From a virus (lineage: Duplodnaviria; Caudoviricetes): a DNA stretch of 41,219 bases. Position 1 is the first letter of the stretch. Each line of letters starts with the position of its first letter. Positions 774 to 40,458 of this stretch are shown piece after piece. The position numbers and the translations under genes are program-made. The notes beneath the pieces were generated by a model. That model worked only from the letters and a program-made list of their open reading frames with translations, had not been told where the DNA came from and did no database searches. The DNA lies in the IMG/VR virus record IMGVR_UViG_3300020045_002325, positions 1 through 41,219 of that record. One strand, given 5' to 3'.

Positions 774-1040
774 TTACTCCTTTAAGAGTCCGAGCCTATC
801 GGAATCGTCCTTATTGCTGGGTATGTTATGAAGAATACAATCCGGGCTAATCCGTAAGTATCCTTCGTCTGTTTTACTCTCCATTAGCTCCTCTGAATTA
901 TACCCACAAACCCACGTCTGTCCGAAGCGTCTTGTCTGTAGGAATGTACAGGAACCTTCTTTGGTTCTACAGACTGGTGTACCGCTTGGTGCGTGGTATG
1001 TTTTAATCTTGATTGTCTTGTAGGTCTTACTGTCTGTCAT
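774..1040 (-). CDS. hypothetical Cys-containing phage protein
   Basis: 88-aa ORF; ATGA overlap with the upstream gene. Confidence 0.6.
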   Translation of the reverse strand: MTDSKTYKTIKIKTYHAPSGTPVCRTKEGSCTFLQTRRFGQTWVCGYNSEELMESKTDEGYLRISPDCILHNIPSNKDDSDRLGLLKE

Positions 1041-5022: not shown

Positions 5023-6120
5023 ATGACTCAAGTGCAACCAGAAATGCAAATTCAAACTTACCTTAAAACCCACGGTCTATCAAAGCTACAGTCTGAGCTT
5101 GGTATCAAGGTTAAGCTCTACGAAAACGAAGGTTTAATGGTACTGAACTACTCTCAAGTTGATTCACCTAAGAGTCATCCTGTTGTTATGGAATGTCGTG
5201 GCTTGATCTTAGATACAGAATTTAATGTAGTGTCTAGGTCTATGGACAGATTTTTTAACTTAAATGAGGTTCCAGAATCACAGTCACACATCGACATGAG
5301 TAAAGCTATTTGTTACCAGAAGGTTGATGGCAGTCTTATCCGTATCTATAACCACAGAGGTACATGGTACGTAGCTACACGCGGTATGGCCTTTGCTGAG
5401 GCTACTGTGAATGGTTTTGACGTGACATTCAAGGAGCTTGTACTGAGGGCTTTGGACTGTACAGAACTGGAGTTTCAAGAACGGTGTTTACAGTGGTTAA
5501 ACCCTGCAGTTACGTACATCTGTGAGATTACATCAACTGAGAATCGTTGTGTGAAGTCCTACATTGGCTACACCTTATGGTATCTGACTGCACGTCATAA
5601 CAGCACTTACAAGTACCTAGACGAATCAGACAAAGCTCACGTATTTGGTATGTCATTTCCGAAGGGTTATACATTCAACTCTTTATTGGACTGTAAGGAA
5701 GACGTACAGAACCTAAAGAACCTCGATGAAGGTTACGTACTCTACCAAGACATGATTCCAGTGTGTAAGATCAAATCACCTGCGTATTGTGCAGTGCATC
5801 TTCTGCGTGGTGAAGGGTTGAATCCTAAGAGTATCAGTGAGCTTGTACTAACAGGTGAACAGGAGGAGTACTTAGCGTATTTCCCAGAGGATCGTGCATT
5901 CATTCAAGAGTACGTAGATAAACTCCAGAGTATTATGCTGGACTTGAACACAGCTTATGAGACGTGCAGTTCAATCCAAGATCAGAAAGAGTTCGCTCTG
6001 GCTATTCGTGCTGTGAAAGGTAATAGCGTATTGTTCATGGCACGTAAGATGAATAAAACAGTACAACAAGCATTTAAATCCATACCTGATACAGCAAAGC
6101 TCAAAATGTTGATGGAATAG
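5023..6120 (+). CDS. RNA ligase, T4 Rnl1-like
   Basis: ECRGLILD, RFFN, adenylation motif I KVDGSL, EGYV, KIKS. Confidence 0.88.
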   Translation: MTQVQPEMQIQTYLKTHGLSKLQSELGIKVKLYENEGLMVLNYSQVDSPKSHPVVMECRGLILDTEFNVVSRSMDRFFNLNEVPESQSHIDMSKAICYQKVDGSLIRIYNHRGTWYVATRGMAFAEATVNGFDVTFKELVLRALDCTELEFQERCLQWLNPAVTYICEITSTENRCVKSYIGYTLWYLTARHNSTYKYLDESDKAHVFGMSFPKGYTFNSLLDCKEDVQNLKNLDEGYVLYQDMIPVCKIKSPAYCAVHLLRGEGLNPKSISELVLTGEQEEYLAYFPEDRAFIQEYVDKLQSIMLDLNTAYETCSSIQDQKEFALAIRAVKGNSVLFMARKMNKTVQQAFKSIPDTAKLKMLME

Positions 6121-10450: not shown

Positions 10451-11113
10451 ATGCAAGTAAAAATCGTAGGTTACACACAACCATCAGAAGAATTCAAGGA
10501 TAAATTCACTGACCTCAAAAGCTTTGTTGCGTATTGTGCTCGGGTATCTAATCCAAGTAATAAAATCAACAATGAAACAGCAGATAAACTAATCAAATAC
10601 CTAGTGAAGCACTTGCACTGGTCCCCTCTAGAGATGGCTAGTGTTACACTAGAAATTCAGACTACTCGTGATATTGCTCGTCAACTGCTCCGACATCGTT
10701 ACTTCTCATTTCAGGAGTACAGTCAACGGTATGCAGACCCTGTCAAGGACTTACAGTTTGAACTCCGTGATGCACGTATGCAAGACCAGAAGAATCGCCA
10801 AAACAGTACAGTACTGGATATGGAAGATGAAGATAATCGTTTTATTTACTCAGAGTGGAATCGTCGTCAACTGGAAGTAATTGAGCTAGTTAAGGAGAAC
10901 TACAAGTGGGCGGTGAATGTAGGTATTGCTAAGGAGCAAGCACGTTGTATTCTCCCAGAGGGTTGTACTCAGAGTATCCTACAGGTTCAAGGTACACTGC
11001 GATCATGGATTCACTACATTGCAGTTCGTCAACACGAGAGTACACAACTAGAGCACCGAGAGTTAGCTACAGAGGTTGCTCGTGCTATTGCTATGATTTT
11101 TAAGGTCGAGTAG
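10451..11113 (+). CDS. thyX: flavin-dependent thymidylate synthase
   Basis: AYCARVS, HWSPLE, signature RHRYFSFQEYSQRY, KEQAR..LP. Confidence 0.95.
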   Translation: MQVKIVGYTQPSEEFKDKFTDLKSFVAYCARVSNPSNKINNETADKLIKYLVKHLHWSPLEMASVTLEIQTTRDIARQLLRHRYFSFQEYSQRYADPVKDLQFELRDARMQDQKNRQNSTVLDMEDEDNRFIYSEWNRRQLEVIELVKENYKWAVNVGIAKEQARCILPEGCTQSILQVQGTLRSWIHYIAVRQHESTQLEHRELATEVARAIAMIFKVE

Positions 11114-21380: not shown

Positions 21381-22259
21381 TTAAGCGGTTGCACTTTGCA
21401 ATTGCGCCCTTGTCTTCTTGACTTTACTACTGAGCTTCGTAGTTGGTGCTTTAACATCAGGCCATACTCCAGTCTCTACAACTGGTACAGCATGAACTTC
21501 ATCTTCGTACTCACCACAACTACAATTATCACAGTCCCCTTCGCATCCTAACTTCTCATCACAATCTTCTTCGTACTCCTTGACTAACTCCTCTCGCTTA
21601 ATCAATCTACTCTGAATCTCTACTGCGTTCAACCACAGCTCCTTACCCTCGATACAAGCTCCGATCTCATCCTCCGTCAAGAACCCCCAGTAGATACCTC
21701 TGAATACTTCAGCACCTGTATCATGCGTGTGGTCAACGAACGCTTTAATATCACTGGATTTACCTGCAGTACCATACCGCACGAAGTGACACAGCATGCT
21801 AGCAAACGGAGATACCTGTACTTCATCGCAACTCAATGCAAGCATACTAGCTGCTGAGTGACATTCTCCATTCATATAAGCAATCGTAGTAGCCTCTGTA
21901 CGTAGGACTGCAGAGAGTAGAGCTGTGAGTCCATTGTAAGCCCCACCGGGTGAATGAATCTCGAATTTGATTAGATCATTCTCTGATGTGTTAGTCAAAC
22001 GTTGAGCTACATGACGGTAGTAGCTAGCTTCTCGAATACGTGTATCAATAGGGATGGTCAAGCATACAGATACTTGCTGTTCTTCGGTGTAGCCAAGGAA
22101 GGACTCTTGTGGTTCTTCTTCGTAGTCCTCTTCGTTTAGTTGAGGAGAACTTGTACTTGCTTTGATAGCATAACCAGAACCCTCTTGATATTTAGTAGAG
22201 TGATATTTGCCTACCTGATATTTACCTGTAGTGTATTTATTTGTATTGTTGAATTTCAT
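21381..22259 (-). CDS. clpP: ClpP-like protease
   Basis: IHSPGG, catalytic SAAS, MLCH, ELWLNA.E; acidic/Cys-rich C-terminal extension. Confidence 0.8.
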   Translation of the reverse strand: MKFNNTNKYTTGKYQVGKYHSTKYQEGSGYAIKASTSSPQLNEEDYEEEPQESFLGYTEEQQVSVCLTIPIDTRIREASYYRHVAQRLTNTSENDLIKFEIHSPGGAYNGLTALLSAVLRTEATTIAYMNGECHSAASMLALSCDEVQVSPFASMLCHFVRYGTAGKSSDIKAFVDHTHDTGAEVFRGIYWGFLTEDEIGACIEGKELWLNAVEIQSRLIKREELVKEYEEDCDEKLGCEGDCDNCSCGEYEDEVHAVPVVETGVWPDVKAPTTKLSSKVKKTRAQLQSATA

Positions 22260-22285
22260 GTATTGTCCTTATTTAAAATACTAGA

Positions 22286-23062
22286 TTATCGGCCAACTTT
22301 GAATTGCTTGTCTGTGTTAGATTTAGAAATAATAGCAGTACCATCCAGATCAGCTTTCATCTCTTCCTCAAAAGCAATAACGAAATCACGGGTAATATCA
22401 CTACGACAGATATCATCACGATTGAACTTAATATTAGCTGTATCTGGGATATTGTATTTCTGTACCAGCTTCTCTAAGTACGTCAATCCATCCATACCGT
22501 TCTTAACATCAGTCTGTAAACCTGAGTTATCACCGCAGAAGATCATCTGTGAATTTGTACCAATACGTGTAGTCAGTGCTTGAATCTCAGGTACAAACAA
22601 GTTCTGTGCCTCATCGACAATTATAATTGAGTCAGACCAACTACGACCACGAATAGTCTCTAATGAACAAATCTCAATACTTCCATTCTTAATATAAATC
22701 TCTGTAGAGGCTTTACCCAAGTAGTCCTCTAAGTAGTCCACCATCTGTTGATAGTAAGGCATCAGTTTAGCCAAGGCATCACCGGGCATAAAGCCAATAG
22801 TACGTCCAACTAATGGTTGGTATGCACGTAGAAGAATGATTTTCTTAACATCACCAAAGAATAACTTACGTGCTGCGTGGTGCACAGAAAGTAAACTTTT
22901 TCCAACTCCAGCGCTCCCGGACGCAACAATGATAGTATTGAACTTCAGTGCATCAAGCATTTCCTTCTGGTGTTCATTCATTGGAAGAAGAACTGGGAAT
23001 TGTACACGAGTGAACTTCTCTTTTTGTACACGATCTGATTGGACTTTTTGATTACGTTTCAT
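22286..23062 (-). CDS. phoH: PhoH-family ATPase
   Basis: GSAGVGKS (Walker A), IGFMPG, RGRSW, IIVDEAQN, TRIG, GD..Q.D, DICRS. Confidence 0.95.
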   Translation of the reverse strand: MKRNQKVQSDRVQKEKFTRVQFPVLLPMNEHQKEMLDALKFNTIIVASGSAGVGKSLLSVHHAARKLFFGDVKKIILLRAYQPLVGRTIGFMPGDALAKLMPYYQQMVDYLEDYLGKASTEIYIKNGSIEICSLETIRGRSWSDSIIIVDEAQNLFVPEIQALTTRIGTNSQMIFCGDNSGLQTDVKNGMDGLTYLEKLVQKYNIPDTANIKFNRDDICRSDITRDFVIAFEEEMKADLDGTAIISKSNTDKQFKVGR

Positions 23063-25947: not shown

Positions 25948-25976
25948 TTGTACTTGCTTTATAAATATGTTACAAT
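25948..25976 (+). promoter_or_regulatory. sigma70-type promoter
   Basis: TTGTAC-17 bp-TACAAT with extended TG. Confidence 0.55.
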
Positions 25977-26008
25977 CACTTATACCACAATTACACCGCA
26001 AGGACTGC

Positions 26009-26554
26009 ATGAATTCTACACAAACTACACCTCCAGACTCAACCCCACGTCTCCTCTACAGTTCAACCTTCCCTAACATCGCCTACGATCTCTTGAATGG
26101 CACCTTCTGGCGCATTGATCGTAAAACCAAGGCTACCACTAGGGAATTACCTCTGGACGATTCTAGCAGGGTTGTATGCCGGTCCAGTATCACTGGTAAG
26201 AATACGAATAGAAAAGGAGCAATCCTAGCGTGGGAGATGATTAACAGGAGAGAGCTTCCGGTGGATCATGTGGTGTACTTCAAGGATATGAATGATGATA
26301 ATCTACGCGGGTATAACCTAGGGTGCTGCACCAAAGCTGAATGGAGCTTAATCAAGGATGCTACCGCGAATCTAAGCGGGTATGCTAAGTTAGTACCGCA
26401 TCGGACTGAGGTTTATTCGTACAAGGTACGGTACAAGCAGGGAGGGTTCAGCACCCATCAGAGCTTTCATGATATTACTGCTGCTAAAGCCTTCCTTAGA
26501 ATGCTAGTTTGTACGAGTACAGTGTTGTTGAATAAGTATATAGTGAGCGCATAG
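26009..26554 (+). CDS. HNH-endonuclease-like protein, degenerate active site
   Basis: 'LAWEM...LP...VYFKDMNDDNLRGYNL' matches HNH spacing but lacks the His; start ATG 26009 behind AAGGA. Confidence 0.6.
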   Translation: MNSTQTTPPDSTPRLLYSSTFPNIAYDLLNGTFWRIDRKTKATTRELPLDDSSRVVCRSSITGKNTNRKGAILAWEMINRRELPVDHVVYFKDMNDDNLRGYNLGCCTKAEWSLIKDATANLSGYAKLVPHRTEVYSYKVRYKQGGFSTHQSFHDITAAKAFLRMLVCTSTVLLNKYIVSA

Positions 26555-27659: not shown

Positions 27660-28004
27660 ATGGCGTTTGTTAAAGGTGTGAGTGGTAATCCTGCTGGTCG
27701 CAGCCGTGTATTAGATGCGGATAAGCCCACTAATAGGTCGAATCGTACTAAGGAATTGCTAATTTTGGTCAGGAAGCTGAAACCGATTCAGAGTAAAGCT
27801 ATTCAAGCTGCGGTTAATATTTTAGATAATAAAGATGCGTCAGAGAATGGTAAGCTCCGTAGTGCTGCCCTGATTATTCAGACATATAAAGAGCTACTGA
27901 AGGATTTATATAATCCACTGTACGACAGTGAAGAGTCCGAAGAAATTCAGCAGGACAACAAGCCCGTGTTCTCACTGAAGATTGTAAACACAGAAGAAAG
28001 TTGA
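27660..28004 (+). CDS. putative terminase small subunit
   Basis: N-terminal FVKGVSGNPAGR motif (DUF5681-like); located upstream of TerL. Confidence 0.7.
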   Translation: MAFVKGVSGNPAGRSRVLDADKPTNRSNRTKELLILVRKLKPIQSKAIQAAVNILDNKDASENGKLRSAALIIQTYKELLKDLYNPLYDSEESEEIQQDNKPVFSLKIVNTEES

Positions 28005-28010
28005 AGTTTT

Positions 28011-28092
28011 AAACAAGGATAGGTTGGCCGACCGATAAGTGTGATTCCTCACCACACTTCCTCTGTTTTATTAGTGAGAGCAGGAGGTAATA
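28011..28092 (+). promoter_or_regulatory. endonuclease-leader three-way-junction RNA, copy 1
   Basis: P1 AAACA-AGGA/TCCT-C-TGTTT; P2 GGTT-GGCC-GACC; GATAA; P3 GTGTG/CACAC; loop ATTCCTCAC. Confidence 0.75.
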
Positions 28093-29310
28093 GTGGTAGA
28101 TCAAGTAACTGGTAATTTCTCAGAAGAACCTATTTTCTATGTGTATATTCATAAACGCAAAGATACCAATTCTATATTCTATGTTGGAAAAGGTAAAGAT
28201 AGACGAGCATGGTCAACTAGATCAAGAAACCCTCATTGGGTAAATACTGTTAATAAGTACGGGTATATCGTAGAGATTATTCACCAAGGATTAACAGAAA
28301 AAGAAGCCTTTAATTTAGAAATCAGCACTATAGCATTATATGGTATTGATAACTTAACAAACCTTACCATCGGTGGAAATACTACATCTGGATTTAAGCA
28401 CTCTGACTCTACAAAGAGAGTACAACGTGAGATCACTAATAAACGTAGGTTAGACAATCCAAGTTGGGCGCAAGATTGTGACGCCCGTATGCAGGAATTA
28501 GTACTTGCTCAAAATAAAGACAATAGCTTCCGTAAAATGGTTGCTGAGATAAACAAACAGAACTACAATAATTTATCTGCTGAGGGTAAAGAAGAGTACA
28601 TTAGTAAGAGAACTGCTTGGATGAATGATCCAGATAAAAAGAAAAGTGCAATTGATAAGTTCATACTAACATGCTCAACACCTGAGTTTAAAGAAAAACA
28701 AAGTCAAGCCACAAAAGCAGCTTGGGAGAATATGTCAGAAGATACTCGTAAGCTACGGTCAGAAAGCTCCAAAATTATATGGGATAACTCAGAGTTTAAA
28801 GCTAAACTCCTTGAAATGCGTTCATATAAAATAGTAGTCAATCGTAGATTTATCTTTGATTCTATCAAGGATTTTAGTCGTAAAGTTGGCAACAGCAATT
28901 CTTTATATACGACACTGAGTGAAGCAATAGCTAGAGGGTACTCCTTTACAGTGTTTAAAGGTATTCTTGTGGAACACTATAACCCTGATATTCATTCCAA
29001 TGCCACAAAATATAACAGAGAAGTTCTTCAGAAATTGCCTACAAAAATAATGCCAAAGAACAATGCTGTAGTCATGGATGATGAATTGGTATTCACGAGT
29101 TTTAAAGCTGCTGCTGACTACTTCGGTGATCAAAGAACAGACAGTACTCCAGAATGGATTTCAAAATGTATGAAGAATAGCTTACCCGCTATGGGGCACA
29201 ACTGGAGAAAAGCAACAATACCTGAGATTGAGCTTGAAATACTAAAACAATTAGACGCTGTGTATTTAGATACTGCGGAATTAAATACTGAAGGAACTAA
29301 TGGCTACTAA
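28093..29310 (+). CDS. GIY-YIG homing endonuclease (free-standing)
   Basis: FYVYIHKRKDT..IFYVGKG..RRA, E..A..LE, LTN...GG, NUMOD3-like KHSDSTK. Confidence 0.85.
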   Translation: MVDQVTGNFSEEPIFYVYIHKRKDTNSIFYVGKGKDRRAWSTRSRNPHWVNTVNKYGYIVEIIHQGLTEKEAFNLEISTIALYGIDNLTNLTIGGNTTSGFKHSDSTKRVQREITNKRRLDNPSWAQDCDARMQELVLAQNKDNSFRKMVAEINKQNYNNLSAEGKEEYISKRTAWMNDPDKKKSAIDKFILTCSTPEFKEKQSQATKAAWENMSEDTRKLRSESSKIIWDNSEFKAKLLEMRSYKIVVNRRFIFDSIKDFSRKVGNSNSLYTTLSEAIARGYSFTVFKGILVEHYNPDIHSNATKYNREVLQKLPTKIMPKNNAVVMDDELVFTSFKAAADYFGDQRTDSTPEWISKCMKNSLPAMGHNWRKATIPEIELEILKQLDAVYLDTAELNTEGTNGY

Positions 29311-30808
29311 ACGAAAAGACTACTCAGATAAAATCGTGCTTGCACCGGCAAGTATCCCTCAGGAATGCTTCCTTTCAAGTACTAGCACAATTACATGCTA
29401 CTCTGGGAGCGCGGGTGCTGGAAAAACTTTTGCTTTGATTCTTAATATGGTTAAGTTCGCAGCTAAACAGAACTCAACTATTATCTGCTTCCGAAGAACC
29501 AGTACCCAAATCCGCTCCCCCGGTTCTGTATGGCAAGAGGCTAGTGTTATTTTTGCACAGATGTTTCCTGATGCTAAAATCAGAAGTAGAGATTTAGAGA
29601 TATTTATTCCTAGTACTAACTCAGTAGTTAAATTCGCTCACTTACAGCATTTATCTGACGTAAACAATCACTTGGGATCACAGTATAGCGCAGTCTTCTT
29701 CGACGAGGCTGTTACATTTGACCCATTTGAATCGTTTGTTTTACCACTAATGGGCCGTATGCGTAATGCTAAGGTTGATTATACCCCTCAAATGTTCTGG
29801 GCAACTAATCCTAAGTTTGGACCCGGTATTTACGACTGGTTAAAGGACTTTTATTTAGATGATCAAGGTATCCCCCTCAAGGAGAAATCCAACGTAGAGA
29901 GGTACTTCGTTCTGAAGGACAGTAAGCCAGTTTGGTTCAATGATAGAAAAGAAGCTGAAGCATTATATGGCGATCAGGTGCGTAGTTTCCGCAGTATACG
30001 TGCCCATGTGACAGACAATAAACCGCTCATGTTAGCTAACCCTGATTATATTTATAATCTGATGGCTTTACCTGAAGTTAAGAAACGAATATTCTTAGAT
30101 GGTTCATGGACTGCTCGTGAGCAAGAGTCTGGATTCTTTAAACGTGAATTCTGCAAGATTGTCCCTTACCCTAATGCTGTAGCTCACCGTAGAGTACGTT
30201 CATGGGATTTAAGTGCAGTAAAGCCCTCTACAGCGTCACCTGACCCTGATTGGACTCGTGGTGTACTCATGAGTAAAGATAAGAACAATATCTACACTGT
30301 AGAGGATGTACAGAGTTTACGTGATAGACCTTATGAAGTTGAGAATCTAATCTATAGAACTGCACTAGCTGACCCAGATGGTACGATTGTAACTATCCCA
30401 CTTGACCCTGGTCAAGCAGGTATTGCTTACTCGAATATCATTAAGTTAAAACTCTCAGAAATGGGTATAACTTGCAGGTTAGTACGGACGAATAAATCCA
30501 AGTTAACACGCTTCTTACCATTCTCTGCTATATCTGAGGCTGGTCTAGTTAACTTTGTTAAATCAGAGTGGTTAGACGAGATGCTAGTAGAGCTTGAGAA
30601 CTTCACAGGTGAGAAGAATAATGGACACGATGACTTGGCTGACTGCGTTTCTGACTGTATCCTTACACTTAATCAGGGTGTAATGGAACTCCCCTCCTTC
30701 ACCCTGCCTGATCTACACCAGTCCAATTCCTACTCTAACCTCGGATTCTCCCAGCCGGTATTACCTCAAGGTGAAGCACCTAGGATTATACAAGGAGAAT
30801 TCCAATAG
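29300..30808 (+). CDS. terL: terminase large subunit
   Basis: Walker A GSAGAGKT, Walker B FFDEA, ATNP, nuclease RSWDL.A...DPDWT, HDD.AD. Confidence 0.93.
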   Translation: MATKRKDYSDKIVLAPASIPQECFLSSTSTITCYSGSAGAGKTFALILNMVKFAAKQNSTIICFRRTSTQIRSPGSVWQEASVIFAQMFPDAKIRSRDLEIFIPSTNSVVKFAHLQHLSDVNNHLGSQYSAVFFDEAVTFDPFESFVLPLMGRMRNAKVDYTPQMFWATNPKFGPGIYDWLKDFYLDDQGIPLKEKSNVERYFVLKDSKPVWFNDRKEAEALYGDQVRSFRSIRAHVTDNKPLMLANPDYIYNLMALPEVKKRIFLDGSWTAREQESGFFKREFCKIVPYPNAVAHRRVRSWDLSAVKPSTASPDPDWTRGVLMSKDKNNIYTVEDVQSLRDRPYEVENLIYRTALADPDGTIVTIPLDPGQAGIAYSNIIKLKLSEMGITCRLVRTNKSKLTRFLPFSAISEAGLVNFVKSEWLDEMLVELENFTGEKNNGHDDLADCVSDCILTLNQGVMELPSFTLPDLHQSNSYSNLGFSQPVLPQGEAPRIIQGEFQ

Positions 30809-30971
30809 TTAGGATGTGGTGATTAAGAGGCATAACTAGAAAGTTAAATACTTCCGTGTTATGCTAGAACGAGTACAAGGTACGAGATGCCTTGTTGTTT
30901 CATGCGTAAATCATAAGCACAGATACCTGCAGTACAACAGCAGTAATACAGAAATACTTACAAGGATAATA

Positions 30972-32384
30972 ATGGCAACAAAGATAATCAAAGAAATCGT
31001 AACTGATGTTGGTGGTAATACCACGATTGAGTTCAGTGATGATACTACGCAGAAGTACAATGTAGCTGATGTGGTTACTGCACAAGTTAATCCTGTCACC
31101 GGGGGGATTAGTTTATCGGGCATAAATACCCAGATCGCACTGGCTGCAAAAAACACGATGGGCCAGAAGCTAATGGGCATTTCAGGTGTTACAGATCAAA
31201 CGTCACCCTACACGTATCTCATGAAGGTTGCACTGGATGCAGACTTTGATTCAGTCCGTGTTGTGTACTACCACCACGGAACGGGATCACCTGTCATCAC
31301 GGCTTGCGTAGCTGCGACAGAAACAGCACAAACAGACACTACCGACCATCTTTTTGAGCCGATTGCAGGGGGTGTAAAGTATCAAGTAAAAGACAGCGCA
31401 ACAGATGACAAGGGCTGGCGCTCGGTACTGTGGGCGGGGGCTGCTTCTCCCACTGTGGTGGCCGCTTCAAACTCATGGGCTCCGACTATCAGCGCATCGG
31501 ACTGGATACCGCTGCAAAGCGTTCCACGCGCAGATGGCGGGACGCTGCCACTTTTGATGCTGCGCCTTTACTCGGCAACAGCAGCAGCACAACCTTACAG
31601 CAAGGTGTCGTGTGTAGCCGCAATGCGTGATGCAACAGCTGCAAACAATGGGCGAATTCTTCAATCAGCAGCCTATAGTGGCGATGCAGTGGGCACTATT
31701 TCAGATGCTGCACGGCCCGGATCGCTGGCATCTTCCTGCCCAACTGTTGGAATTCAATTTAGAACACGCTCACGGGGATTGGTGATTGTTGGCGTTGGCG
31801 ACTCGATTACACAAGGAGATGGGCAAGTAGCCGACCTGTTTTCTTCCTGGGGACTTCGTGCGGCTGCAAAACTTTCAACCGCAGCACGGCCTGTAAGCTA
31901 CTGGAATAACGGGGTTGACGGGAAAACTAGCTCGTTTTACCTCCCATCCGGCCTAAATACGGCTGTCGCCGTAGCGCCAAACATCATGGTTTACTCGGCT
32001 TACTCACCAAATGACTACGGCGCAGCGCCAACGGCAGGGGCTTTACGTTACGCGGTGCAGACAATGATGGCAAAGACGCAGGCAATGCTTGATTACTGCT
32101 ATGCGAACAACATCACCCCAATCCTGACCACTGGAAATCCACACTCTGCACAGCTAACAACGGTAGCAGTTGACGATGTTCGCAAGGTGTACAACGCAAA
32201 GATTCGGGCGATGTGTGCAGCGAAGATGGCATACCTTGCTGATTGGGATTTGGCTCTTTCTGACGGTGCATCGCCAGCCGCTTATTTGCCGGCGTATGAC
32301 GTTGGCGACCACCTACATCCGAATGAAGCCGCGATTGAAGTCATGGCGAACGTGCTGGCTGCTACTGTCCGAACGATTTTCTAA
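30972..32384 (+). CDS. SGNH/GDSL esterase-domain protein, probably virion-associated
   Basis: Block I GDSIT, N.GV.G, PND, DHLHPN; start ATG 30972 behind AAGGA. Confidence 0.8.
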   Translation: MATKIIKEIVTDVGGNTTIEFSDDTTQKYNVADVVTAQVNPVTGGISLSGINTQIALAAKNTMGQKLMGISGVTDQTSPYTYLMKVALDADFDSVRVVYYHHGTGSPVITACVAATETAQTDTTDHLFEPIAGGVKYQVKDSATDDKGWRSVLWAGAASPTVVAASNSWAPTISASDWIPLQSVPRADGGTLPLLMLRLYSATAAAQPYSKVSCVAAMRDATAANNGRILQSAAYSGDAVGTISDAARPGSLASSCPTVGIQFRTRSRGLVIVGVGDSITQGDGQVADLFSSWGLRAAAKLSTAARPVSYWNNGVDGKTSSFYLPSGLNTAVAVAPNIMVYSAYSPNDYGAAPTAGALRYAVQTMMAKTQAMLDYCYANNITPILTTGNPHSAQLTTVAVDDVRKVYNAKIRAMCAAKMAYLADWDLALSDGASPAAYLPAYDVGDHLHPNEAAIEVMANVLAATVRTIF

Positions 32385-32494
32385 TCCCCTCTGCACGAAG
32401 ATTACACCCGTTCAACCAAGAACAACGGGTGTTCTCCACTACACGTATTCCAAGTATTCCACTTATTAACTCACATAGAACAAAGGAGCCAACA

Positions 32495-33985
32495 GTGGCT
32501 ACACGTAAAACTAAAGAACAACCACAGTCAGTAACCAAAGCTAACTACCTAGATACTCCTGAGCGATTCCGTCTATCAGAAATCGGCAGCTTAGGCATCA
32601 ATACGTTCGGTGGGTGTTCAACGGAAGAGCTGAAAAGAGAACTCAACTGGCCGAACAACATCAAAATCTACAAACAGATGACCTACAGCCCATCTATCAA
32701 TTCTGCATTGACTCTCTATGAGAATATCATCGGAAAAGTAGAATGGGCATACACCGCACCTCAGAACCCCACAGAAGAAGACACCAAACGTGCTGTAATC
32801 ATCAATGAAATGATGCGTGATCTGGACGGTGGTACATGGCGTGAGTTCATTAATGATGTGCTTTCAATGATGGTGTATGGATTCAGTGTACACGAGAAAG
32901 TATACCGCCGTAGATACAAGAGTAATGGCTCACGTTTTAATGACGGTGTAATCGGCTGGAAGAAACTCGCTATTAGAAACCAAGAGACTATCGAGCGTTT
33001 CACCTTCAGTCCAGACGGCTCTGATATTACGGGTGTAAAGCAGAATCTTTATGGTGTAGGTGATACTCTAGGACGGTATAGCTCCAGAGGTTCACAAGAG
33101 GTTGTATTACCACGTAGCAAGTTCATGCTGTTCCGTACAGGTAAGCACAAAGGTAATCCATTTGGTGTATCTCATCTACGTGATGCGTATAGCTCATGGA
33201 AGTACCTTACAGCAATTGAAGAGATGGAAGTAGTGGGATTCTCTAAGGATTTAGCTGGCGTTCCTCTGCTCAAGATTCCACCGCAGTATATGTCAGCAGA
33301 TGCTAGTACTGATCAGAAGAGGGAATACGAGAATTTCAAGAACATGATTCGTAACCTACAGCAGAATCAACAGTCCGGTGTTATCTTACCTCAAGCGTTT
33401 GATCTAGAGACTAAGCAACCGTTGTTTGATCTGAAGCTACTCTCGAATGAAGGTGGCAAGAAAGCGTTCGATTCTGATAAAATCAAGGACTATTACAAGC
33501 GAGCTATTTACGTAGCGTTATTCGCTGAGGTATTAATCTTCGGTTCAGCTTCAGGTGGTAGCTTTAACCTAGGTGTTATCAAGAATAGTATGACGGGTGC
33601 AGCAGCGGAATCAATGCTGAAGAATATCCGTGATGTACTTAATAATGACCTGCTGGTACAGACGTTCCAGCTAAATAACTGGGACGAAAGTCGCATAGGA
33701 TCATTTGATTTTGATGGTGTAGATGTCGAAGATATTGAGTCCAAATCCAAAGCTTTCCAGAGATATGCAAGTACTGGTTTACTTGAACTTGATCGTGAAG
33801 TACTAAATGCTGTACGTACATCAGTAGGTATTGATCCATTGCCGATTGATATGCCCCCGCAGACAGATATTCTAACTGGTTCAACATCTAAAAGCGGCCA
33901 AGGCTACGCTAGTCCTACAGGTATCGGAACAAGTACTCAAATGACTGGTGAAGATACAAGCTCAAATAATCTCGAAAATAGTTGA
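32495..33985 (+). CDS. portal protein
   Basis: Position after TerL; YGFSVHEKVYR, NPFGVS.L, DLAGVP; GTG start 32495 behind AAGGAG. Confidence 0.85.
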   Translation: MATRKTKEQPQSVTKANYLDTPERFRLSEIGSLGINTFGGCSTEELKRELNWPNNIKIYKQMTYSPSINSALTLYENIIGKVEWAYTAPQNPTEEDTKRAVIINEMMRDLDGGTWREFINDVLSMMVYGFSVHEKVYRRRYKSNGSRFNDGVIGWKKLAIRNQETIERFTFSPDGSDITGVKQNLYGVGDTLGRYSSRGSQEVVLPRSKFMLFRTGKHKGNPFGVSHLRDAYSSWKYLTAIEEMEVVGFSKDLAGVPLLKIPPQYMSADASTDQKREYENFKNMIRNLQQNQQSGVILPQAFDLETKQPLFDLKLLSNEGGKKAFDSDKIKDYYKRAIYVALFAEVLIFGSASGGSFNLGVIKNSMTGAAAESMLKNIRDVLNNDLLVQTFQLNNWDESRIGSFDFDGVDVEDIESKSKAFQRYASTGLLELDREVLNAVRTSVGIDPLPIDMPPQTDILTGSTSKSGQGYASPTGIGTSTQMTGEDTSSNNLENS

Positions 33986-33989
33986 GGTC

Positions 33990-34017
33990 TTGCCTTATTT
34001 AGTAATAATGGTAAAAT
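33990..34017 (+). promoter_or_regulatory. sigma70-type promoter ahead of RNA motif copy 2
   Basis: TTGCCT-16 bp-TAAAAT with extended TG. Confidence 0.55.
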
Positions 34018-34020
34018 AAA

Positions 34021-34103
34021 TTAAGCTAGGGTAGCACCCGAAAAGAGTGATTAGTTACCACTCCTGCTTAACTTCTAAGTAACTGTCCTTAACTAGGAAC
34101 ATA
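34021..34103 (+). promoter_or_regulatory. endonuclease-leader three-way-junction RNA, copy 2
   Basis: P1 TTAAGC/GCTTAA; P2 GGGT-AGC-ACCC; GAAAA; P3 GAGTG/CACTC; loop ATTAGTTAC. Confidence 0.8.
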
Positions 34104-35018
34104 ATGATTAAGATAATAAAAGCTTTTGATACTAAGCCAGTGGATTTCTACGTCTATTTACATAGAAGACTTGATACTATGGAAGTATTTTACGTAGGCA
34201 AAGGAAGTAAAGATAGAGCATGGATGGTCAGTAGCAGAAGTAGAGATAAGAACTCACACTGGGGCAACGTAGCTAAAAAGCACGACATATACATAGAAAT
34301 AGTTAAAGATAAACTCCAAGAATGGTATGCACTTGAATTAGAAATAGAGTTAATATCTTTGTACGGTAGAAGTGATCTAAAATTAGGTAAGCTTGTAAAC
34401 AAAACAGACGGAGGAGAGTCCGGGCTTGGAATAATATTCACAGAAGCTACAAGACTTAAACTGAAAGAGTGTCAACTCAAGTATGGTAAAAGAGTCACTC
34501 TTAATAATCACATATCTTTTCTGACAATAAAAGATGCAGCAAGGTATTTACTTGGAGATGGTAAAACTGATCTTGAATACAGAAGAGTGTGTTCAGCAGT
34601 ATCTAGTTGTTTATGCGGGCGTAGTAAAACGTATAAAGGCAATTTACTCTACCAACCACATAATGATTACGCTATGGTACTTAAAGAATCCGAGAATTAT
34701 CTTAAAGTAAGACATTCAGACGAAGTAATGATACAAGCGTATAACGAGTACATGTCCAATAAAAAGACTATGGTAATACTAAGTAAAGAACTTGGTCTAG
34801 CTGAAGGGTATCTGCAGAATCTATTCAAAGGTGTGTACAGACCGCATCTGAATTTCAAACAGAAGTCTCGTGAAGATAGTTTAAGATTTAACAACTCTGA
34901 TATTATAGCAAGCCTTGAATACTTAACTGCGATCCAAGCTATGAAGTTATACAATATCAGTAAAACACATTTGTACAGAATAAAACGAAGTGTAGGACAA
35001 GAAACTAAAAGCAACTAA
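34104..35018 (+). CDS. GIY-YIG homing endonuclease (free-standing)
   Basis: FYVYLHRRLDT..VFYVGKG..DRA, ELEIELI, LVNKTDGGE. Confidence 0.88.
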   Translation: MIKIIKAFDTKPVDFYVYLHRRLDTMEVFYVGKGSKDRAWMVSSRSRDKNSHWGNVAKKHDIYIEIVKDKLQEWYALELEIELISLYGRSDLKLGKLVNKTDGGESGLGIIFTEATRLKLKECQLKYGKRVTLNNHISFLTIKDAARYLLGDGKTDLEYRRVCSAVSSCLCGRSKTYKGNLLYQPHNDYAMVLKESENYLKVRHSDEVMIQAYNEYMSNKKTMVILSKELGLAEGYLQNLFKGVYRPHLNFKQKSREDSLRFNNSDIIASLEYLTAIQAMKLYNISKTHLYRIKRSVGQETKSN

Positions 35019-35033
35019 CTTAAAGGAGCGTCT

Positions 35034-36545
35034 ATGCCTTGCGTACATTGGGGTATTCTACGTGATCAAACACTACCAGCAATGAAGGATAAAACCCTAG
35101 AAGAGCGCAAGCTCTTCGCTAAGGTAGCTAATGCAGCTTTATCCCAATGTAAATCCGAGAAAGAAGCAATCATAGCTGGTCTAGCTGCTGTGAAGAATAT
35201 AGTAAATAAAGCTCAGGCTATTCCACTACATCTTCAAGCAGTTCTTGATCTTGTTGAGAAAGCTAGATCAGACCCACCTGTAGATGCTCCTGTTAAGTCA
35301 CCAGAGGCACCTACAGCCTCTTCTAACTGGTTTAGCAGCACAATATACCAAGCTAATGCTACGGTCGATTCTAGGGGCCTTACAGAGGGTTTAAACGCTA
35401 GTATCAAAGAACGTAGCCTAATCCGTGCAAGCTTCGATACTAAAGGTCGTCTAGTCCTTGGCTTTGACAACGGTGATACTATCATTACAAACGAACAAAT
35501 CCTGAAGGAGTACATCGAGCAGTACATAACTGTTCATACTACTCCTTTCTTTGATTGGATTAAGTTCAATACTGAAGCTAATGTGCCTAATGAGGACTTC
35601 ACAGCAGGTATGCTCAGGTGGAATTCCTTCGATGGCACTCTGGATCTACGTATGGGTGATAACGCTACTCTCCAGCTAGGTATGGAGATGTACTGCCCAC
35701 CTGTACTGAACATAACCGGAAGTACTATCCCACAAGGTTCTGTAGTAGCTGCTACAGGTGGCGACATGGGTACTTCTAGGATTACCTTCGGATTGGCTAC
35801 AGCTAATCACGCGTTCAACTCCTTCAGGGTTCTTGGGATATGTACTGAAGATATTCCTTCAGGTATGACTGGATTTGTTACTAACTTCGGGTTAGTCCGT
35901 ACCTTGGATACTACTGGTACACCCTATGGTGAAACATGGGCATCAGGTGATATTCTGTACGTGTCCTCCAATGTAGCAGGTCAGTTAAGTAATGTTAAAC
36001 CAGTACCACCTAATGAAAGTATTCCAGTAGCCTTTGTGGGTATTGTGAGTTCAACAGTAGGGACAATCTTCGTTAAACCCCAAGCTGTAACACGGCTGGA
36101 TTATGCTTCGTTCTACGATACTACAACTCAGGTACAGACACTGACAGAAACACCAAGTGCTATCCGTGTGAATACCACCAAAGAAGCCTACGGTATATCT
36201 GTAGTGAATAACACAAGAATAACCTGTAGTACAGCAGGACTGTATGAATTCCAGTTCACTATGCAGGTATCTAAGTCAAACTCCAATGCTCAGAATATGT
36301 GGGTATGGGGGAGGATTAACGGAGTAGATATCCCAGCTAGTGCAAATAAGCTCAGTGTACAGGGCTCAGGTACTCTGCTGGTTCCAAGCTGGAGCTTCCA
36401 AGAGGCGATGAATGCAGGTGATTACTTTGAGCTAATGTGGGCAGTGGATAGTACTACTATTACGCTCGTAGCTCCTGCTAGTACGGGGTTCTGCCCAAGC
36501 ACGCCTAGTTGTACTGTGACTGTAGCACAGGTTAATATTAGCTAA
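35034..36545 (+). CDS. putative head decoration/fibre protein (multi-domain)
   Basis: Position in the head module; ChaB-like N-terminal helices; beta-rich middle; C1q/TNF-like C terminus (AGLYEFQF...GDYFELMW). Confidence 0.55.
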   Translation: MPCVHWGILRDQTLPAMKDKTLEERKLFAKVANAALSQCKSEKEAIIAGLAAVKNIVNKAQAIPLHLQAVLDLVEKARSDPPVDAPVKSPEAPTASSNWFSSTIYQANATVDSRGLTEGLNASIKERSLIRASFDTKGRLVLGFDNGDTIITNEQILKEYIEQYITVHTTPFFDWIKFNTEANVPNEDFTAGMLRWNSFDGTLDLRMGDNATLQLGMEMYCPPVLNITGSTIPQGSVVAATGGDMGTSRITFGLATANHAFNSFRVLGICTEDIPSGMTGFVTNFGLVRTLDTTGTPYGETWASGDILYVSSNVAGQLSNVKPVPPNESIPVAFVGIVSSTVGTIFVKPQAVTRLDYASFYDTTTQVQTLTETPSAIRVNTTKEAYGISVVNNTRITCSTAGLYEFQFTMQVSKSNSNAQNMWVWGRINGVDIPASANKLSVQGSGTLLVPSWSFQEAMNAGDYFELMWAVDSTTITLVAPASTGFCPSTPSCTVTVAQVNIS

Positions 36546-36656
36546 TATAGAGTCACTTGTCAGATAAACACTGGCATGATAGACTGTTCGGTTAATAAAC
36601 ACCAACACAATGTAATCGCAGCTTATCTAGGCTGCTCTAAATAGAAAGAACCAATA

Positions 36657-36902
36657 ATGCTTACTCAAGATACATCACCAAGCCCTTACGTTTTTGCAGT
36701 AGTACCGCACGCTAGCTTGAACTTCACACAAGAAGTACGCCAGTTATACGCAGGTACTGCTGGGGATATTACAGTAGTTAATCTAGATAATACCACTGTT
36801 ACATTTGTGGGTGTTAACGCAGGTACAACCCTAGGTCCATTCTACATTAAGCGCGTAAACGCTGTGGGTACTACTTGTACTTCAATCGTGGCGTTTATCT
36901 AA
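36657..36902 (+). CDS. head spike base protein (RcGTA Rcc01079-like)
   Basis: 'AVVP......VRQLYAGTAGDITV......VTF....AG..L.....RV.A.GTT...IVA' pattern; 81 aa. Confidence 0.75.
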   Translation: MLTQDTSPSPYVFAVVPHASLNFTQEVRQLYAGTAGDITVVNLDNTTVTFVGVNAGTTLGPFYIKRVNAVGTTCTSIVAFI

Positions 36903-36933
36903 GAGTGCTACCTTTATTTAAGCGGAGGTTTCT

Positions 36934-38625
36934 ATGTTCATAGGAATGGGGATTAGAATAGGTGGTAATAAGGCGGTACTCTCGGATATTGCTAAAGCGA
37001 TTGCTTTCCTGAAGAGTCAAGGTGAGAATGCCCACGTATGGCTACCCGGCATTGGTGCGCTCAATGGCATCCAAGCAGGTAACTACCTAGACAGCGCAGG
37101 CACTACGCTTGCTGCTATTGATGGGCCTGGTGGTCGGGTTAATGATGGGATGGGCGTGTTGGGGGTGGAGCTAGTGACGAATGGGGACTTTAGTTCACCT
37201 GTTGGGTGGACTCTACCCTCATCAGCAACTATCAGCGGCGGCTCTCTTAACTTCAATAGCTCGACCCCTGAGTTTGCAACGTTACCTCTTATGTTTGTTG
37301 CTGGAAAAACCTATGTCATTGAGTTTGACTACACCCATATTAGTGGCGGTGGGTTTCGCGGGCCGTACGACGGTGGTGCAGGAAATATTATCTCGGTAAC
37401 TGCGACGGGTCACTATAAGAAAATTATGTACTCGACATCAGGTAATGTTTTGATGTATGTTGGTTATGGTGGAACATCGACTGGGTCCTTTGACAACATC
37501 TCCGTCCGCGAAATCTCCGGCATCCACCTGACCCAAGCTACAACCGCGAGTAAGCCTGTATTACGGAGGGGGTTGTTGAATCAGGCGTTGCAGAGCAATG
37601 CACCTACTACAAGCCCTTGGGTTTTCTCTCCAGCCGCTAATGGCTGCACTAAAGATCAAGTTGGGCGTGATGGGTCAGCCAATTCAGCGTGGAGAATTAC
37701 TGCGTTAACTTCATCTAGCGCAATCTACTCATTTACAACAGTAGTACCCGGCGTTTACACCTTTGCATTTTGGGCAAAGTCAAATGGTGGAACACAGAAC
37801 TACATCGGTTTGTGGGATCGCTATGGCGTAGGCTCAGTTAGCTCGTCGAGAGACTTTACGGAAGAGCTATCAACAACAGAGTTTCGACTGATAACAATCA
37901 CGCATACTGTGGCGGCGGGTGGTACTACGCTGTATTACTACATCACCAGAGATAAGCCTGCTGGATCAGTGGATGTAATCATCCAAGATGTCGGACTATT
38001 CCAAGGCACCCTAACAGCAGCCGACATCATCAAACAAGGTGGCATCCCAGTAACCACCACAGCACCAGCAAGCAATCCAAATGCTGGGAGTTATTCGTGG
38101 GCATTCGACGGGAGTAATGATTCGCTGCAACTGAGTGCTGTGCCGTTTCAGATGTCGGATGATCATTGTGTGATTGCAGCGAGTGAAAACCAGAAGATCA
38201 CAGGGGCGCCTTATATTTTCGGTGTGAAAGGGGACTCTTACCTTTGCTCTGGAGCTATAGCCTACGCATCAGGAAAGCCAATGGCATTCTGGTATGACGG
38301 GACTACAACAGCAGCAGTAGTGCACGGGTCTGTAGTGACCGCACCCTGCGTTATCACAGCGTCTAAGGTTGGTGCCAATAAGACCCTTAGGGTTAACTCT
38401 GTCAAGTCTGGAGCAACAAATACGTCAGTAATGGCCTCTGTCGCTACTGGGTCGGCTTACATAGGTAGCAGCAGTGGTGCAAGTGCTGGCACGGTTGAAA
38501 ACGCGACTTATGCATTCACTGGCAACCTCGGCCCAGTAATCGCAATCAAAGGCAATGTCAGTGACGCAAACCTGCTGCTGCTTGAGAAACTGGTTGCGAA
38601 TCTTTCTGGAGTAACCCTGCCATGA
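36934..38625 (+). CDS. head spike fibre with carbohydrate-binding/lectin-like domains
   Basis: N-terminal MFIGMGIRIG anchor like RcGTA Rcc01080; ELVTNGDFS...DNISVRE (CBM-like); FDGSNDSL (LamG/ConA-like). Confidence 0.7.
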   Translation: MFIGMGIRIGGNKAVLSDIAKAIAFLKSQGENAHVWLPGIGALNGIQAGNYLDSAGTTLAAIDGPGGRVNDGMGVLGVELVTNGDFSSPVGWTLPSSATISGGSLNFNSSTPEFATLPLMFVAGKTYVIEFDYTHISGGGFRGPYDGGAGNIISVTATGHYKKIMYSTSGNVLMYVGYGGTSTGSFDNISVREISGIHLTQATTASKPVLRRGLLNQALQSNAPTTSPWVFSPAANGCTKDQVGRDGSANSAWRITALTSSSAIYSFTTVVPGVYTFAFWAKSNGGTQNYIGLWDRYGVGSVSSSRDFTEELSTTEFRLITITHTVAAGGTTLYYYITRDKPAGSVDVIIQDVGLFQGTLTAADIIKQGGIPVTTTAPASNPNAGSYSWAFDGSNDSLQLSAVPFQMSDDHCVIAASENQKITGAPYIFGVKGDSYLCSGAIAYASGKPMAFWYDGTTTAAVVHGSVVTAPCVITASKVGANKTLRVNSVKSGATNTSVMASVATGSAYIGSSSGASAGTVENATYAFTGNLGPVIAIKGNVSDANLLLLEKLVANLSGVTLP

Positions 38626-38999
38626 CCAACGCTTACAACCACACCCTAAGCATCACCCTGCCTGCGAACTTAGCTGGCATTGCATCGGCCATAGGTCGCG
38701 CCCTCGATCCTGACAGTGGTGGAGACAAGAGCTTTACCCCGTCGGAAGATGGCCTAACCATCACCACATCAACACCCTGCACCGCAGAGTTCTACGCACA
38801 AGCGCAGTACATGCTGGCAAATCCTGAAGCATTGCACGCTGCTGTGGCCGCTGACTACGCTGCCCGGTGGGGTGATCTGGTGGTGCCTACGCTTGAGGAA
38901 TGCACGTTGTTCTGCGAGAGTATAGCACCGGCTTCTATAACTCCTGTAGCTCTAGTACAAGAGGTGCTACAAGAAGTTGTTCCAGTTGTTCTGCCTTGA
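38622..38999 (+). CDS. hypothetical protein coupled to the fibre gene
   Basis: ATGA overlap; GC-rich like the fibre gene. Confidence 0.65.
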   Translation: MTNAYNHTLSITLPANLAGIASAIGRALDPDSGGDKSFTPSEDGLTITTSTPCTAEFYAQAQYMLANPEALHAAVAADYAARWGDLVVPTLEECTLFCESIAPASITPVALVQEVLQEVVPVVLP

Positions 39000-39023
39000 G
39001 CTAGGCTTGTCTAGCAACCCGCC

Positions 39024-39052
39024 TTGACTTCTAATACCCATAATGCTATTAT
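39024..39052 (+). promoter_or_regulatory. sigma70-type promoter
   Basis: TTGACT-17 bp-TATTAT with extended TG. Confidence 0.6.
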
Positions 39053-39125
39053 ATTAGCTAATTAAATCCAGTGGACAATAGGTTTATACTATCAGTCCAA
39101 TGGACTACAGAATAAGGAGTACGAC

Positions 39126-39521
39126 ATAAGTACTGCAAAAGATACAAAGAGTCTTCCTATTGTTAAAGCATTGAATGAGGAATTAATGCAGGTTACATAC
39201 GTGGCGATGAAGCCCGGCGTGGACTTACATTTTCACTCAGTTGATCTAGAAGAAATTCGACTAGCTAAAGAGTCATTCAATAAGAGTCTAATGCGGGCTA
39301 ATCTCTTCCACATGACTATGACGGATTCATTCAGCATAATCGAGTCATTTTTATCACCGACAGACATGATTTTAAATAAGCAGTTAGTCACTAAGGGTGA
39401 ATGGCTGGTTACTCTTCAGGTTCATAAAGGGCATGAGGATGTATGGAACATGATTAAGAATGACGAGATAACGGGCGTTTCAATCGGTGCTATGGGCATC
39501 CTAGAAGACGTTGAAGAATAA
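39126..39521 (+). CDS. XkdF-like prohead serine protease (probable ATA start)
   Basis: VDLH, NLFH, IIES, KGEW, W..IK..EITGVSIG; frame stays open upstream of TTG 39171 to ATA 39126, 6 nt after AGGAG. Confidence 0.75.
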   Translation: MSTAKDTKSLPIVKALNEELMQVTYVAMKPGVDLHFHSVDLEEIRLAKESFNKSLMRANLFHMTMTDSFSIIESFLSPTDMILNKQLVTKGEWLVTLQVHKGHEDVWNMIKNDEITGVSIGAMGILEDVEE

Positions 39522-39529
39522 GTAATATA

Positions 39530-39612
39530 AACAAGGCTACCTCGACGGAGGGAAAAGGTGATTCATCCACACCCTGCCATTGTTGTTTGGATGCATTCTT
39601 GATGGAGAATTA
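39530..39612 (+). promoter_or_regulatory. endonuclease-leader three-way-junction RNA, copy 3
   Basis: P1 AACAA-GGC/GCC-A-TTGTT; P2 CCTC-GACG-GAGG; GAAAA; P3 GGTG/CACC; loop ATTCATCCA. Confidence 0.8.
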
Positions 39613-40458
39613 ATGAATAATATTTACTACGTCTATTTACATAGACGCAAAACTGACAACAAAGTTTTCTATGTTGGTAAGGGTAAAGGACGTAGAGCAT
39701 ATAGCACAAAAGGTCGAAATAATCATTGGGTGAACATAGAAAAGAAGCACGGGTTAATTGTTGAAATTGTATTTGATAATCTAACTGAACCTGAAGCATT
39801 CCAAGTAGAAAAAGACACTATTTTAGAGCTTAGGTATTTCGGCCATCCCTTATGTAATATGACAGATGGTGGTGAAGGTCTTTCTGGTTTTAAATGGTCT
39901 GAAGAGCAAATGAAACATCACCCTAGTCTATCCAACATAGGAAGAAAGCAAAGCAAAGAGGAAATCGCTAAAAGAAGCGAGGCGATGCGCGGTAGAACTC
40001 TATCAAAGGCTACCCGAGAAAAGATAAGTAAAGGACACCAAGGTACTTCTGTCTTTTCATTTATTGTTAAAACTTTAATGGGAAAACGTATCATACCGCA
40101 TAAGCTCCGAGCAAAAATACTAGGCATATCACCTCTTGAGTTATTTAAGAAACCAACAGTAAAGCCCAGATTCACAGCAGAAGCTATTGAAAAAGCTGCA
40201 GCAATGAAGAGAGGGAAGCCCTCGTGGAACTCTGGAAAGAAATCACCAGAGTCCTCCGGTATTTTAAACAGTTCTGCAGATACTCGTATTTTTGAATTTG
40301 AAAGACTAGTAGATGGTCTAGTTTTCGTAGGTACACGGTACGAGCTTAGTGAAACATTCTCTCTTAATCTATCTGAGATTGGAAAACTATTCTATACAAA
40401 GGCTAGAAAATCAAGTCAAGGTTGGAAACTAATAAAGGAAATTAATGGAACAAACTGA
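39613..40458 (+). CDS. GIY-YIG homing endonuclease with NUMOD3-like repeats
   Basis: YYVYLHRRKTD..VFYVGKG..RRA, LCNMTDGGEG, SKATREKIS; start ATG 39613 behind GGAG. Confidence 0.88.
   Translation: MNNIYYVYLHRRKTDNKVFYVGKGKGRRAYSTKGRNNHWVNIEKKHGLIVEIVFDNLTEPEAFQVEKDTILELRYFGHPLCNMTDGGEGLSGFKWSEEQMKHHPSLSNIGRKQSKEEIAKRSEAMRGRTLSKATREKISKGHQGTSVFSFIVKTLMGKRIIPHKLRAKILGISPLELFKKPTVKPRFTAEAIEKAAAMKRGKPSWNSGKKSPESSGILNSSADTRIFEFERLVDGLVFVGTRYELSETFSLNLSEIGKLFYTKARKSSQGWKLIKEINGTN

Follow-up and report, generated by a model that had tools for sequence, protein, structure and literature searches.

The C4 RNA of phage P1 pairs through its loops with repeated nearby targets. Here, three RNA leaders are described in the Caudoviricetes phage record IMGVR_UViG_3300020045_002325 (41,219 nt, analysed over its whole length and called the window), one ahead of each of its GIY-YIG-type nuclease genes. 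Like P1 C4 and P4 CI RNAs, they are structured RNAs within the transcript to be controlled, with loops pairing with repeated nearby targets (for CI, a passage of PMC4825925), and this analogy, drawn in the initial annotation of the window, is supported as a way of working. C4 is also listed as a motif in a portion of PMC2864571. In contrast to C4 and CI, a single loop of the leaders reads two downstream sites (only downstream targets were scored), the key is hypervariable, a second loop is self-complementary and the cargo is diverse. In a further system, IsrK of prophage Gifsy-1, a 5′ RNA is both part of an mRNA and a trans regulator of its translation, as the leaders may be; unlike the brake proposed here, it activates and is made by a terminator (available text of PMC4825925). 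The Rfam scan of the window contains no IsrK match. Hairpins of the T4 type at the ribosome-binding site (RBS) of I-TevI, segB and mobE limit homing endonuclease translation, and a small hairpin of the leaders, P4, likewise covers the RBS region. The T4 hairpins, however, are single, very stable and bypassed by a late promoter (sections of PMC2988022), whereas P4 is weak (mean −3.5 kcal/mol, none in copy 1) and is read by a distant loop. Finally, the SL-C and SL-D elements of murine leukaemia virus (MuLV) join two RNAs through a GACG tetraloop or a short palindrome (part of PMC5874298), to which the P2 loop is comparable. Such retroviral kissing dimers are of unrelated origin, serve genome packaging and provide a physical precedent only.

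Sequence comparison establishes the fold of the leaders, two sites matched by their P3 loop, the P4 hairpin displaying the second site, a self-complementary P2 loop and copy-specific keys. Very probably, a leader acts on translation by way of P3 and site 2, whatever the exact mechanism. That it is a concentration-dependent brake on translation of its own downstream gene is the favoured reading of these sequence patterns, with chances that we judge to be about even.

Membership of the int-alpA family

An Rfam scan of the window gives four matches at E ≤ 5, of which three are the leaders against RF02996 (int-alpA), with 35.8, 34.5 and 34.1 bits for copies 1, 2 and 3 (gathering cut-off 35.8; E 7e-4 to 2e-3). 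All three align to positions 1–71 of the model. Since the cut-off is reached by 37 of the 40 relatives tested, with scores up to 79.8 bits, leaders and relatives form one family. With copy 1 at the cut-off and copies 2 and 3 slightly under it, the leaders appear to be divergent members of a catalogued motif, contrary to the initial view that no named family could be assigned. The int-alpA model (71 positions; typed Gene; sRNA, for small RNA) has, like the leaders, a P1-UA-P2-GAAAA-P3-CU junction and a 9-nt P3 loop; unlike the present reading, it includes neither the site 1 pairing nor P4 nor a P2 kiss. Its name presumably implies a location between integrase and alpA genes. Such a gene order is not matched in the window, where the neighbours are terS, portal, xkdF and GIY-YIG genes, and no AlpA-family match occurs among 98 proteins encoded downstream of the relatives' leaders.

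Being already catalogued, the RNA is not categorically new. The initial annotation had tied its novelty to the lack of an Rfam match; this is lost for the family as such, although no functional study of int-alpA RNA was found in literature searches, which covered articles without their supplements. The motif probably originates from Weinberg 2017. The main text of that paper (PMC5737381) does not mention int-alpA, and its supplement may describe loop complementarity. Elsewhere, int-alpA occurs as a table entry in PMC12370729 and as a gene-order label in PMC13612085. Literature searches joining C4 RNA with homing endonucleases, or structured RNA with HNH, returned nothing.

The relatives are the matches listed in four pattern scans fixing the junction letters alone, passed through a stem-pairing filter. 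With one element counted per locus, the filter dropped 55 of 119, 16 of 121, 101 of 120 and one of 17 loci. The resulting 210 elements comprise 16 from 17 loci, 64 from 119, 105 from 121, 19 from 120, three from eight protein-led loci and the three of the window. Removal of duplicates and of two short flanks leaves a non-redundant set of 105 leaders with 67 different loop hexamers; exclusion of four leaders lacking an assigned start leaves 101, and of a further 18 lacking two 4-bp sites leaves 83 for the P4 test. Because the search patterns imposed the junction letters, these are not evidence. In an alignment of 22 rows, chosen on stem pairing, two-sided changes (G-U and compensatory) occur in 13 of 16 counted pairs, and 0 of 500 shuffles score as high. 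As the folding energy of the leaders is ordinary (z −0.2 to −1.7), support for the RNA fold rests on this covariation and not on stability; minimum-energy folding is uninformative as evidence. Leader copies are present in cultured phages too, and one variant alone is found in 55 of 5426 Escherichia coli genomes, in prophages.

Anatomy of the three leaders

The initial annotation had located the leaders before all three nuclease genes, and their places, stems and loops are confirmed. A descriptor scan and a covariance model of our own, run over the whole window, each return the same three copies and no fourth. All features given here lie on the plus strand. The three-way junction of leader 1 (28011–28068) consists of P1 (28011–28019/28059–28068), P2 (28022–28033) with the palindrome GGCC (28026–28029), and P3 (28039–28057), joined by the linkers GAUAA and a single U, versus GAAAA and CU in the family. 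Its P3 loop ATTCCTCAC (28044–28052) is complementary to site 1, GTGAG (28074–28078), and to site 2, GAGG (28084–28087), which makes just four Watson–Crick pairs and is included in the Shine–Dalgarno (SD) sequence AGGAGGT (28082–28088). No P4 hairpin above threshold is found in this copy. An extra anti-SD stretch in the 3′ strand of P3/P1 (28056–28064) is able to pair with the SD of the same leader and may stand in for the absent P4.

Leader 2 (34019–34072) has P2 at 34029–34039 with the dyad GC (34034–34035), and P3 at 34045–34063 with the loop ATTAGTTAC (34050–34058). Site 1, GTAACT (34079–34084), is followed by the P4 hairpin TCCT/AGGA (34086–34098), which holds site 2, TAACTA (34090–34095), in its loop and the SD in its 3′ arm. 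Leader 3 (39529–39584) has P2 at 39540–39551, closed by a GACG tetraloop with the dyad CG (39546–39547), and P3 at 39557–39573 with the loop ATTCATCCA (39561–39569). Its site 1 is TGGATG (39588–39593), and its P4 hairpin ATTCT/AGAAT (39595–39610) carries site 2 within the loop TGATGG; the SD is GGAG (39604–39607). A third 6-nt match to loop 3, ATGAAT (39613–39618), lies across the start codon and uses loop positions 1–6, seldom paired in the family. An overlap of site 2 with the SD was initially described for every copy; in copy 2, site 2 only abuts the SD AGGA (34095–34098) or overlaps it by 1 nt.

The three copies have three distinct P2 loops and three distinct P3 keys. The keys are copy-specific as annotated, each loop pairing best with its own downstream region: cognate duplexes reach −6.4, −5.9 and −7.1 kcal/mol for copies 1–3, and non-cognate ones −0.4 to −5.1 kcal/mol. 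The promoter assigned to copy 2, a predicted sigma-70-type site, TTGCCT-16-TAAAAT with TG (extended −10), precedes leader 2 (33990–34017) as a consensus match only, and sites of this kind number 32 versus 29.8 in shuffles. Among 104 relatives, on the other hand, 24 have −10-like hexamers 9–13 nt ahead of the junction, versus a mean of 2.1 in other windows. A consensus scan finds no terminator after P1 of the window leaders.

One loop and two matched sites

Two sites are counted when a 5′ site has at least five Watson–Crick pairs with the loop and a 3′ site at least four. This is the case for 58 of the 67 loop keys, compared with a mean of 5.5 and a maximum of 13 over 100 rounds with swapped loops, in agreement with the proposal that the loop covaries with two downstream sites. 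Counted by leader, the figures are 91 of 105 and 10.3. Site 1 pairs with loop positions 4–9 and site 2 with positions 4–8, mainly at a spacing of 10–15 nt; P1 length and site 1 offset are not significantly correlated (rho 0.21, p 0.057). The match is more than an anti-SD loop meeting an SD, since loops devoid of an anti-SD have two sites in 23 of 27 cases (2.3 expected). In leaders of DUF1376 genes, moreover, loop, site 1 and site 2 co-vary ahead of a near-constant SD, so that here too the match is not merely anti-SD to SD.

The end of site 2 is mostly 5–12 nt ahead of the start codon. Across the family, site 2 is located at the RBS, as had been suggested from the window, and overlaps an SD-like match in 71 of the 101 leaders with an assigned start, being within 2 nt of it in 87. 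The loop pairs more strongly with site 1 than with site 2 in 53 of 83 leaders (mean −7.9 versus −7.1). Chance, or a DNA-level repeat without RNA function, would fit the unremarkable folding z-scores, yet the cognate-loop tests and the fixed position ahead of start codons contradict it, and the covariation in 13 of 16 pairs, in an alignment selected on stem pairing, effectively refutes it; its probability is in our view vanishingly small.

A hairpin displaying site 2 and a self-complementary P2 loop

Two features go beyond the initial annotation, namely the P4 hairpin and the self-complementary P2 loop. Site 2 lies in the loop of P4 in 74 of 83 leaders, compared with 40.5 (maximum 51) when the spacer is shuffled and 30 (maximum 43) when 3′ arms are swapped, and site 1 lies in such a loop in seven of 83. 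P4 begins directly after site 1, stops a few bases short of the start codon and often has the SD within its 3′ arm. Site 1 overlaps the 5′ arm by 1–3 nt in 16 of the 74 leaders. This overlap and the place of the SD would suit an activating device, whose loop, on pairing with site 1 or site 2, would open P4 and make the SD accessible; IsrK acts on orf45 in this manner (a precedent described in part of PMC4825925). Such activation is nevertheless improbable, given the absence of overlap in 58 of 74 leaders and the weakness of P4; and, with site 2 lying on or directly next to the SD in 87 of 101 leaders, a loop bound there should obstruct the ribosome.

The P2 palindrome ends exactly 4 nt ahead of the junction in all 53 distinct P2 arms, at positions left free by the search patterns. 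It consists of a 2-mer (GC 22, CG 13, AT 5, TA 1) or a 4-mer (GGCC 6, TGCA 5, GATC 1) and is present in 29 of 29 inner types versus 11.7 (maximum 20) in shuffles, and in 11–25 of 53 arms at other offsets. Variants with a long P2 have, by eye, palindromes of six bases: TAATTA (three loci) or TCATGA (one locus). These variants (L392:6710–6740, L467, L476 and L479) display a 10-nt purine-flanked loop with the six-base palindrome, which we take to resemble a retroviral dimer-initiation loop. GACG tetraloops, as in copy 3, make loop–loop contacts in retroviral dimers, according to a section of PMC5874298.

The initial annotation proposed a purely cis two-position pseudoknot switch, in which the P3 loop would alternate between site 1, with translation on, and site 2, with translation off. 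Its two sites, and their positions with site 2 at the RBS, are upheld, and the U-rich linker of 5–13 nt would permit cis pairing with no second molecule required. The toggling would be set by folding kinetics, by a host factor or by ribosome traffic from the upstream gene, and copies 1 and 3 do start right behind the upstream stop codon. Nothing obvious drives it, however, as site 1 is both the earlier and, in most cases, the stronger partner, and P2 self-complementarity, kept in the same register by all 53 arms through CG, GC, AT and TA changes, goes unexplained. The self-complementary P2 loop and P4 displaying site 2 favour an intermolecular mechanism, and a purely cis switch appears unlikely.

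A proposed dimer-dependent translational brake

Access of the 30S subunit should be hindered by a loop that binds the SD or its immediate surroundings. T4 RBS hairpins illustrate this principle (parts of PMC2988022), and IsrK shows that in phages a 5′ sRNA can act in trans on the mRNA to which it belongs (available text of PMC4825925). Under the favoured reading, site 1, transcribed first and usually stronger, would let a lone RNA park its own P3 loop there; only the weak P4 would then cover the RBS, and translation would be on. At rising transcript levels, one leader would join another of its own kind through a P2–P2 kiss. The P3 loop of this second molecule, which could be the complete mRNA or a fragment from its 5′ end, would then kiss the P4 loop, block 30S binding and turn translation off. 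With P2 dyads and P3 keys that differ from copy to copy, each of the three nuclease genes would be regulated separately from the other two. Such a brake would probably serve to limit output from dose-sensitive cargo, which in this phage means the nucleases placed within the late head operon. Dimer-dependent repression is favoured because the second copy supplies both the driver and the reason for the P2 palindrome that are missing from a purely cis switch.

A different way of acting in trans is a processed antisense RNA of the C4/CI type, with a stable RNA of 50–60 nt cut from the leader binding both sites, P2 self-pairing being incidental or merely stabilizing; the outcome could include Rho-dependent termination. 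P4 CI RNA is indeed released by processing of the transcript that contains it and has two pairing partners (as a portion of PMC4825925 describes), many leaders start near a predicted transcription start, and cleavage could take place in the U-rich linker behind P1. The leaders, however, have no covariance-model match to RF01695 (0 matches at E ≤ 10), nor to C4 or c4-2 (E ≤ 5), and have both of their targets downstream, in contrast to CI, whose two targets lie on either side of it. We consider this processing quite unlikely, although slightly less so than the activating device.

Several observations weigh against the dimer-dependent brake. Its direction, repression, is something that we infer. 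The relatives are phylogenetically non-independent, and the protein-led set alone is weak (two sites in eight of 10 leaders versus 2.8; five of seven keys versus 2.0, maximum 5). The energy gap between sites is small, site 2 being equal or stronger in 30 of 83 leaders. No clear terminator for a short RNA is seen, at least five T in the 8 nt after P1 occurring in only 32 of 105 leaders. Cis pairing of the P2 loop with P3 is a further option in two of the long-P2 loci. Site spacing is independent of P2 length (rho 0.07), so that a rigid two-armed clamp is disfavoured. Finally, the minimum-energy fold of copy 1, the atypical copy without P4, pairs the 3′ strand of P3/P1 with the SD.

Distribution of the leader and of the nuclease

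Comparison with related loci indicates that leader 1 arrived together with nuclease 1. In L391, whose terL is 93% identical, terS continues directly into terL, nuclease 1 and the leader both being absent, and the sequence in common stops at the leader start; L390 carries both. Likewise, L392 has neither nuclease 3 nor its leader. The idea of a module travelling with the nuclease thus has support from this co-insertion, but fails as a rule: leaders are found in at least 24 of the best 80 of 148 GIY-YIG loci (18 by model, two more by parser and four by eye). In Curvibacter phage P26059A, which has the closest cultured-phage relative of nuclease 3, this homologue has no leader, yet three leaders occur elsewhere in the genome. 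The leader is not nuclease-specific, and most GIY-YIG relatives have none.

The downstream genes point the same way. The 98 proteins scanned, some with possibly misassigned starts or cut by the flank, comprise 20 of HNH families, three NUMOD3 or GIY-YIG, 14 DUF1376, 13 of other families (including Rha, Phage_rep_O, SNF2-like, Dam and tail) and 48 with no match. A linkage to nucleases as a rule, assumed in the initial annotation, is thus contradicted by the many non-nuclease genes, and terL, that the leader also heads. In L392 (3612–3692) and L393 (7902–7982), a leader stands directly ahead of terL with no nuclease; its loop measures 8 nt and has matched sites. These leaders are possibly a remnant of a lost nuclease, or were adopted to control the terminase.

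These data bear on a role of the leader as RNA guide or cofactor of the nuclease, to which its arrival with nuclease 1 and its variable loop might point. This role is rejected, as the genes behind the leader include non-nuclease ones (14 DUF1376, Rha, helicase-like, tail, terL) and the majority of GIY-YIG relatives have no leader; furthermore, the loops fit empty-site DNA no better than other loops do (5 nt each), and the partners of the loop lie in its own leader. We hold it to be highly improbable.

Other arrangements were seen among the relatives. A GIY-YIG-like N-terminus and an HNH_3 domain occur in one chain behind a leader in L008:11928–12755 (P26059A gene 15), L027, L030, L037 and L048. 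In Acinetobacter phage Ab105-2phi (L388:1500–1600), a variant with the same P1 and P2 and a much longer P3 arm precedes a Rha gene. Leaders ahead of short tail assembly chaperone-like genes in L046, L062, L064, L081 and L147 (by eye; no Pfam match) show, on that inspection, leader use on structural genes. A simpler hairpin with an anti-SD-like loop ahead of a GIY-YIG gene (L459:625–690) is outside the int-alpA family.

Genes of the window

The three nuclease genes are inserted after the terS, portal and XkdF protease genes of the phage head operon, all on the plus strand. The terS-like gene upstream of leader 1 (27660–28004) has weak DUF5681 and phrog_3900 matches and precedes terL in relatives. 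GIY-YIG endonuclease 1 (28093–29310; 405 aa) has a GTG start, replaced by ATG at the same spacing in L390, and is followed by the terminase large subunit gene (29300–30808). The portal gene (32429–33985) is upstream of leader 2 and endonuclease 2 (34104–35018; 304 aa), and the gene for the XkdF-type prohead protease (39171–39521) is upstream of leader 3 and endonuclease 3 (39613–40458; 281 aa from ATG 39613), which matches the phrog_314 homing endonuclease. The open reading frames are of the GIY-YIG type: the columns Y6, Y8, H10, Y20, G22, K23, G24, R28, E66 and N82, which give the two-strand Tyr motif and the catalytic Arg, Glu and Asn, are invariant in 12 of 12 aligned rows, and the nucleases have profile matches to the GIY-YIG structures 9u75 (E 4.7e-5) and 9u7u. 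Matches to LEM-3_GIY-YIG stay under the Pfam cut-off in nine of 13 aligned nuclease rows, and NCBIfam yields no family for the three proteins.

Between terL and portal, an SGNH/GDSL hydrolase-domain gene (30861–32384) is present, which L390–L393 do not have, their terL adjoining portal. A weak HNH_3 gene (25967–26554) has no leader of the int-alpA family. Elsewhere in the window, at 1037–1690 (minus strand), 5023–6120, 10451–11113 and 21381–23062 (minus strand), are found a Mom-family DNA-modification gene, RNA ligase, ThyX, ClpP-like protease and PhoH.

Implications

With these data, an orphan Rfam motif gains a concrete and cheaply testable mechanism. Part of PMC2988022 states that translational control of the remaining T4 homing endonuclease genes is not obvious and was untested, and the leaders bear on how the majority of free-standing homing endonucleases keep their own expression in check. 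Tentatively, and with a likelihood somewhat short of even, int-alpA leaders may constitute a widespread protein-free feedback, in which the 5′ leader would sense its own concentration, homodimerizing via a kissing loop of 2–6 nt and shutting the RBS with a reprogrammable key of 5–6 nt. On this same reading, and at the same odds, the device would be a portable means of limiting the dosage of mobile genes (homing nucleases, replication proteins, Rha), available in dozens of mutually independent codes. If the dimer model is true, negative feedback would be achieved by RNA alone and, occurring naturally in orthogonal variants, the device would be usable as an expression-control part; if only the cis switch is true, the family would still provide a naturally reprogrammable leader across phages and E. 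coli prophages.

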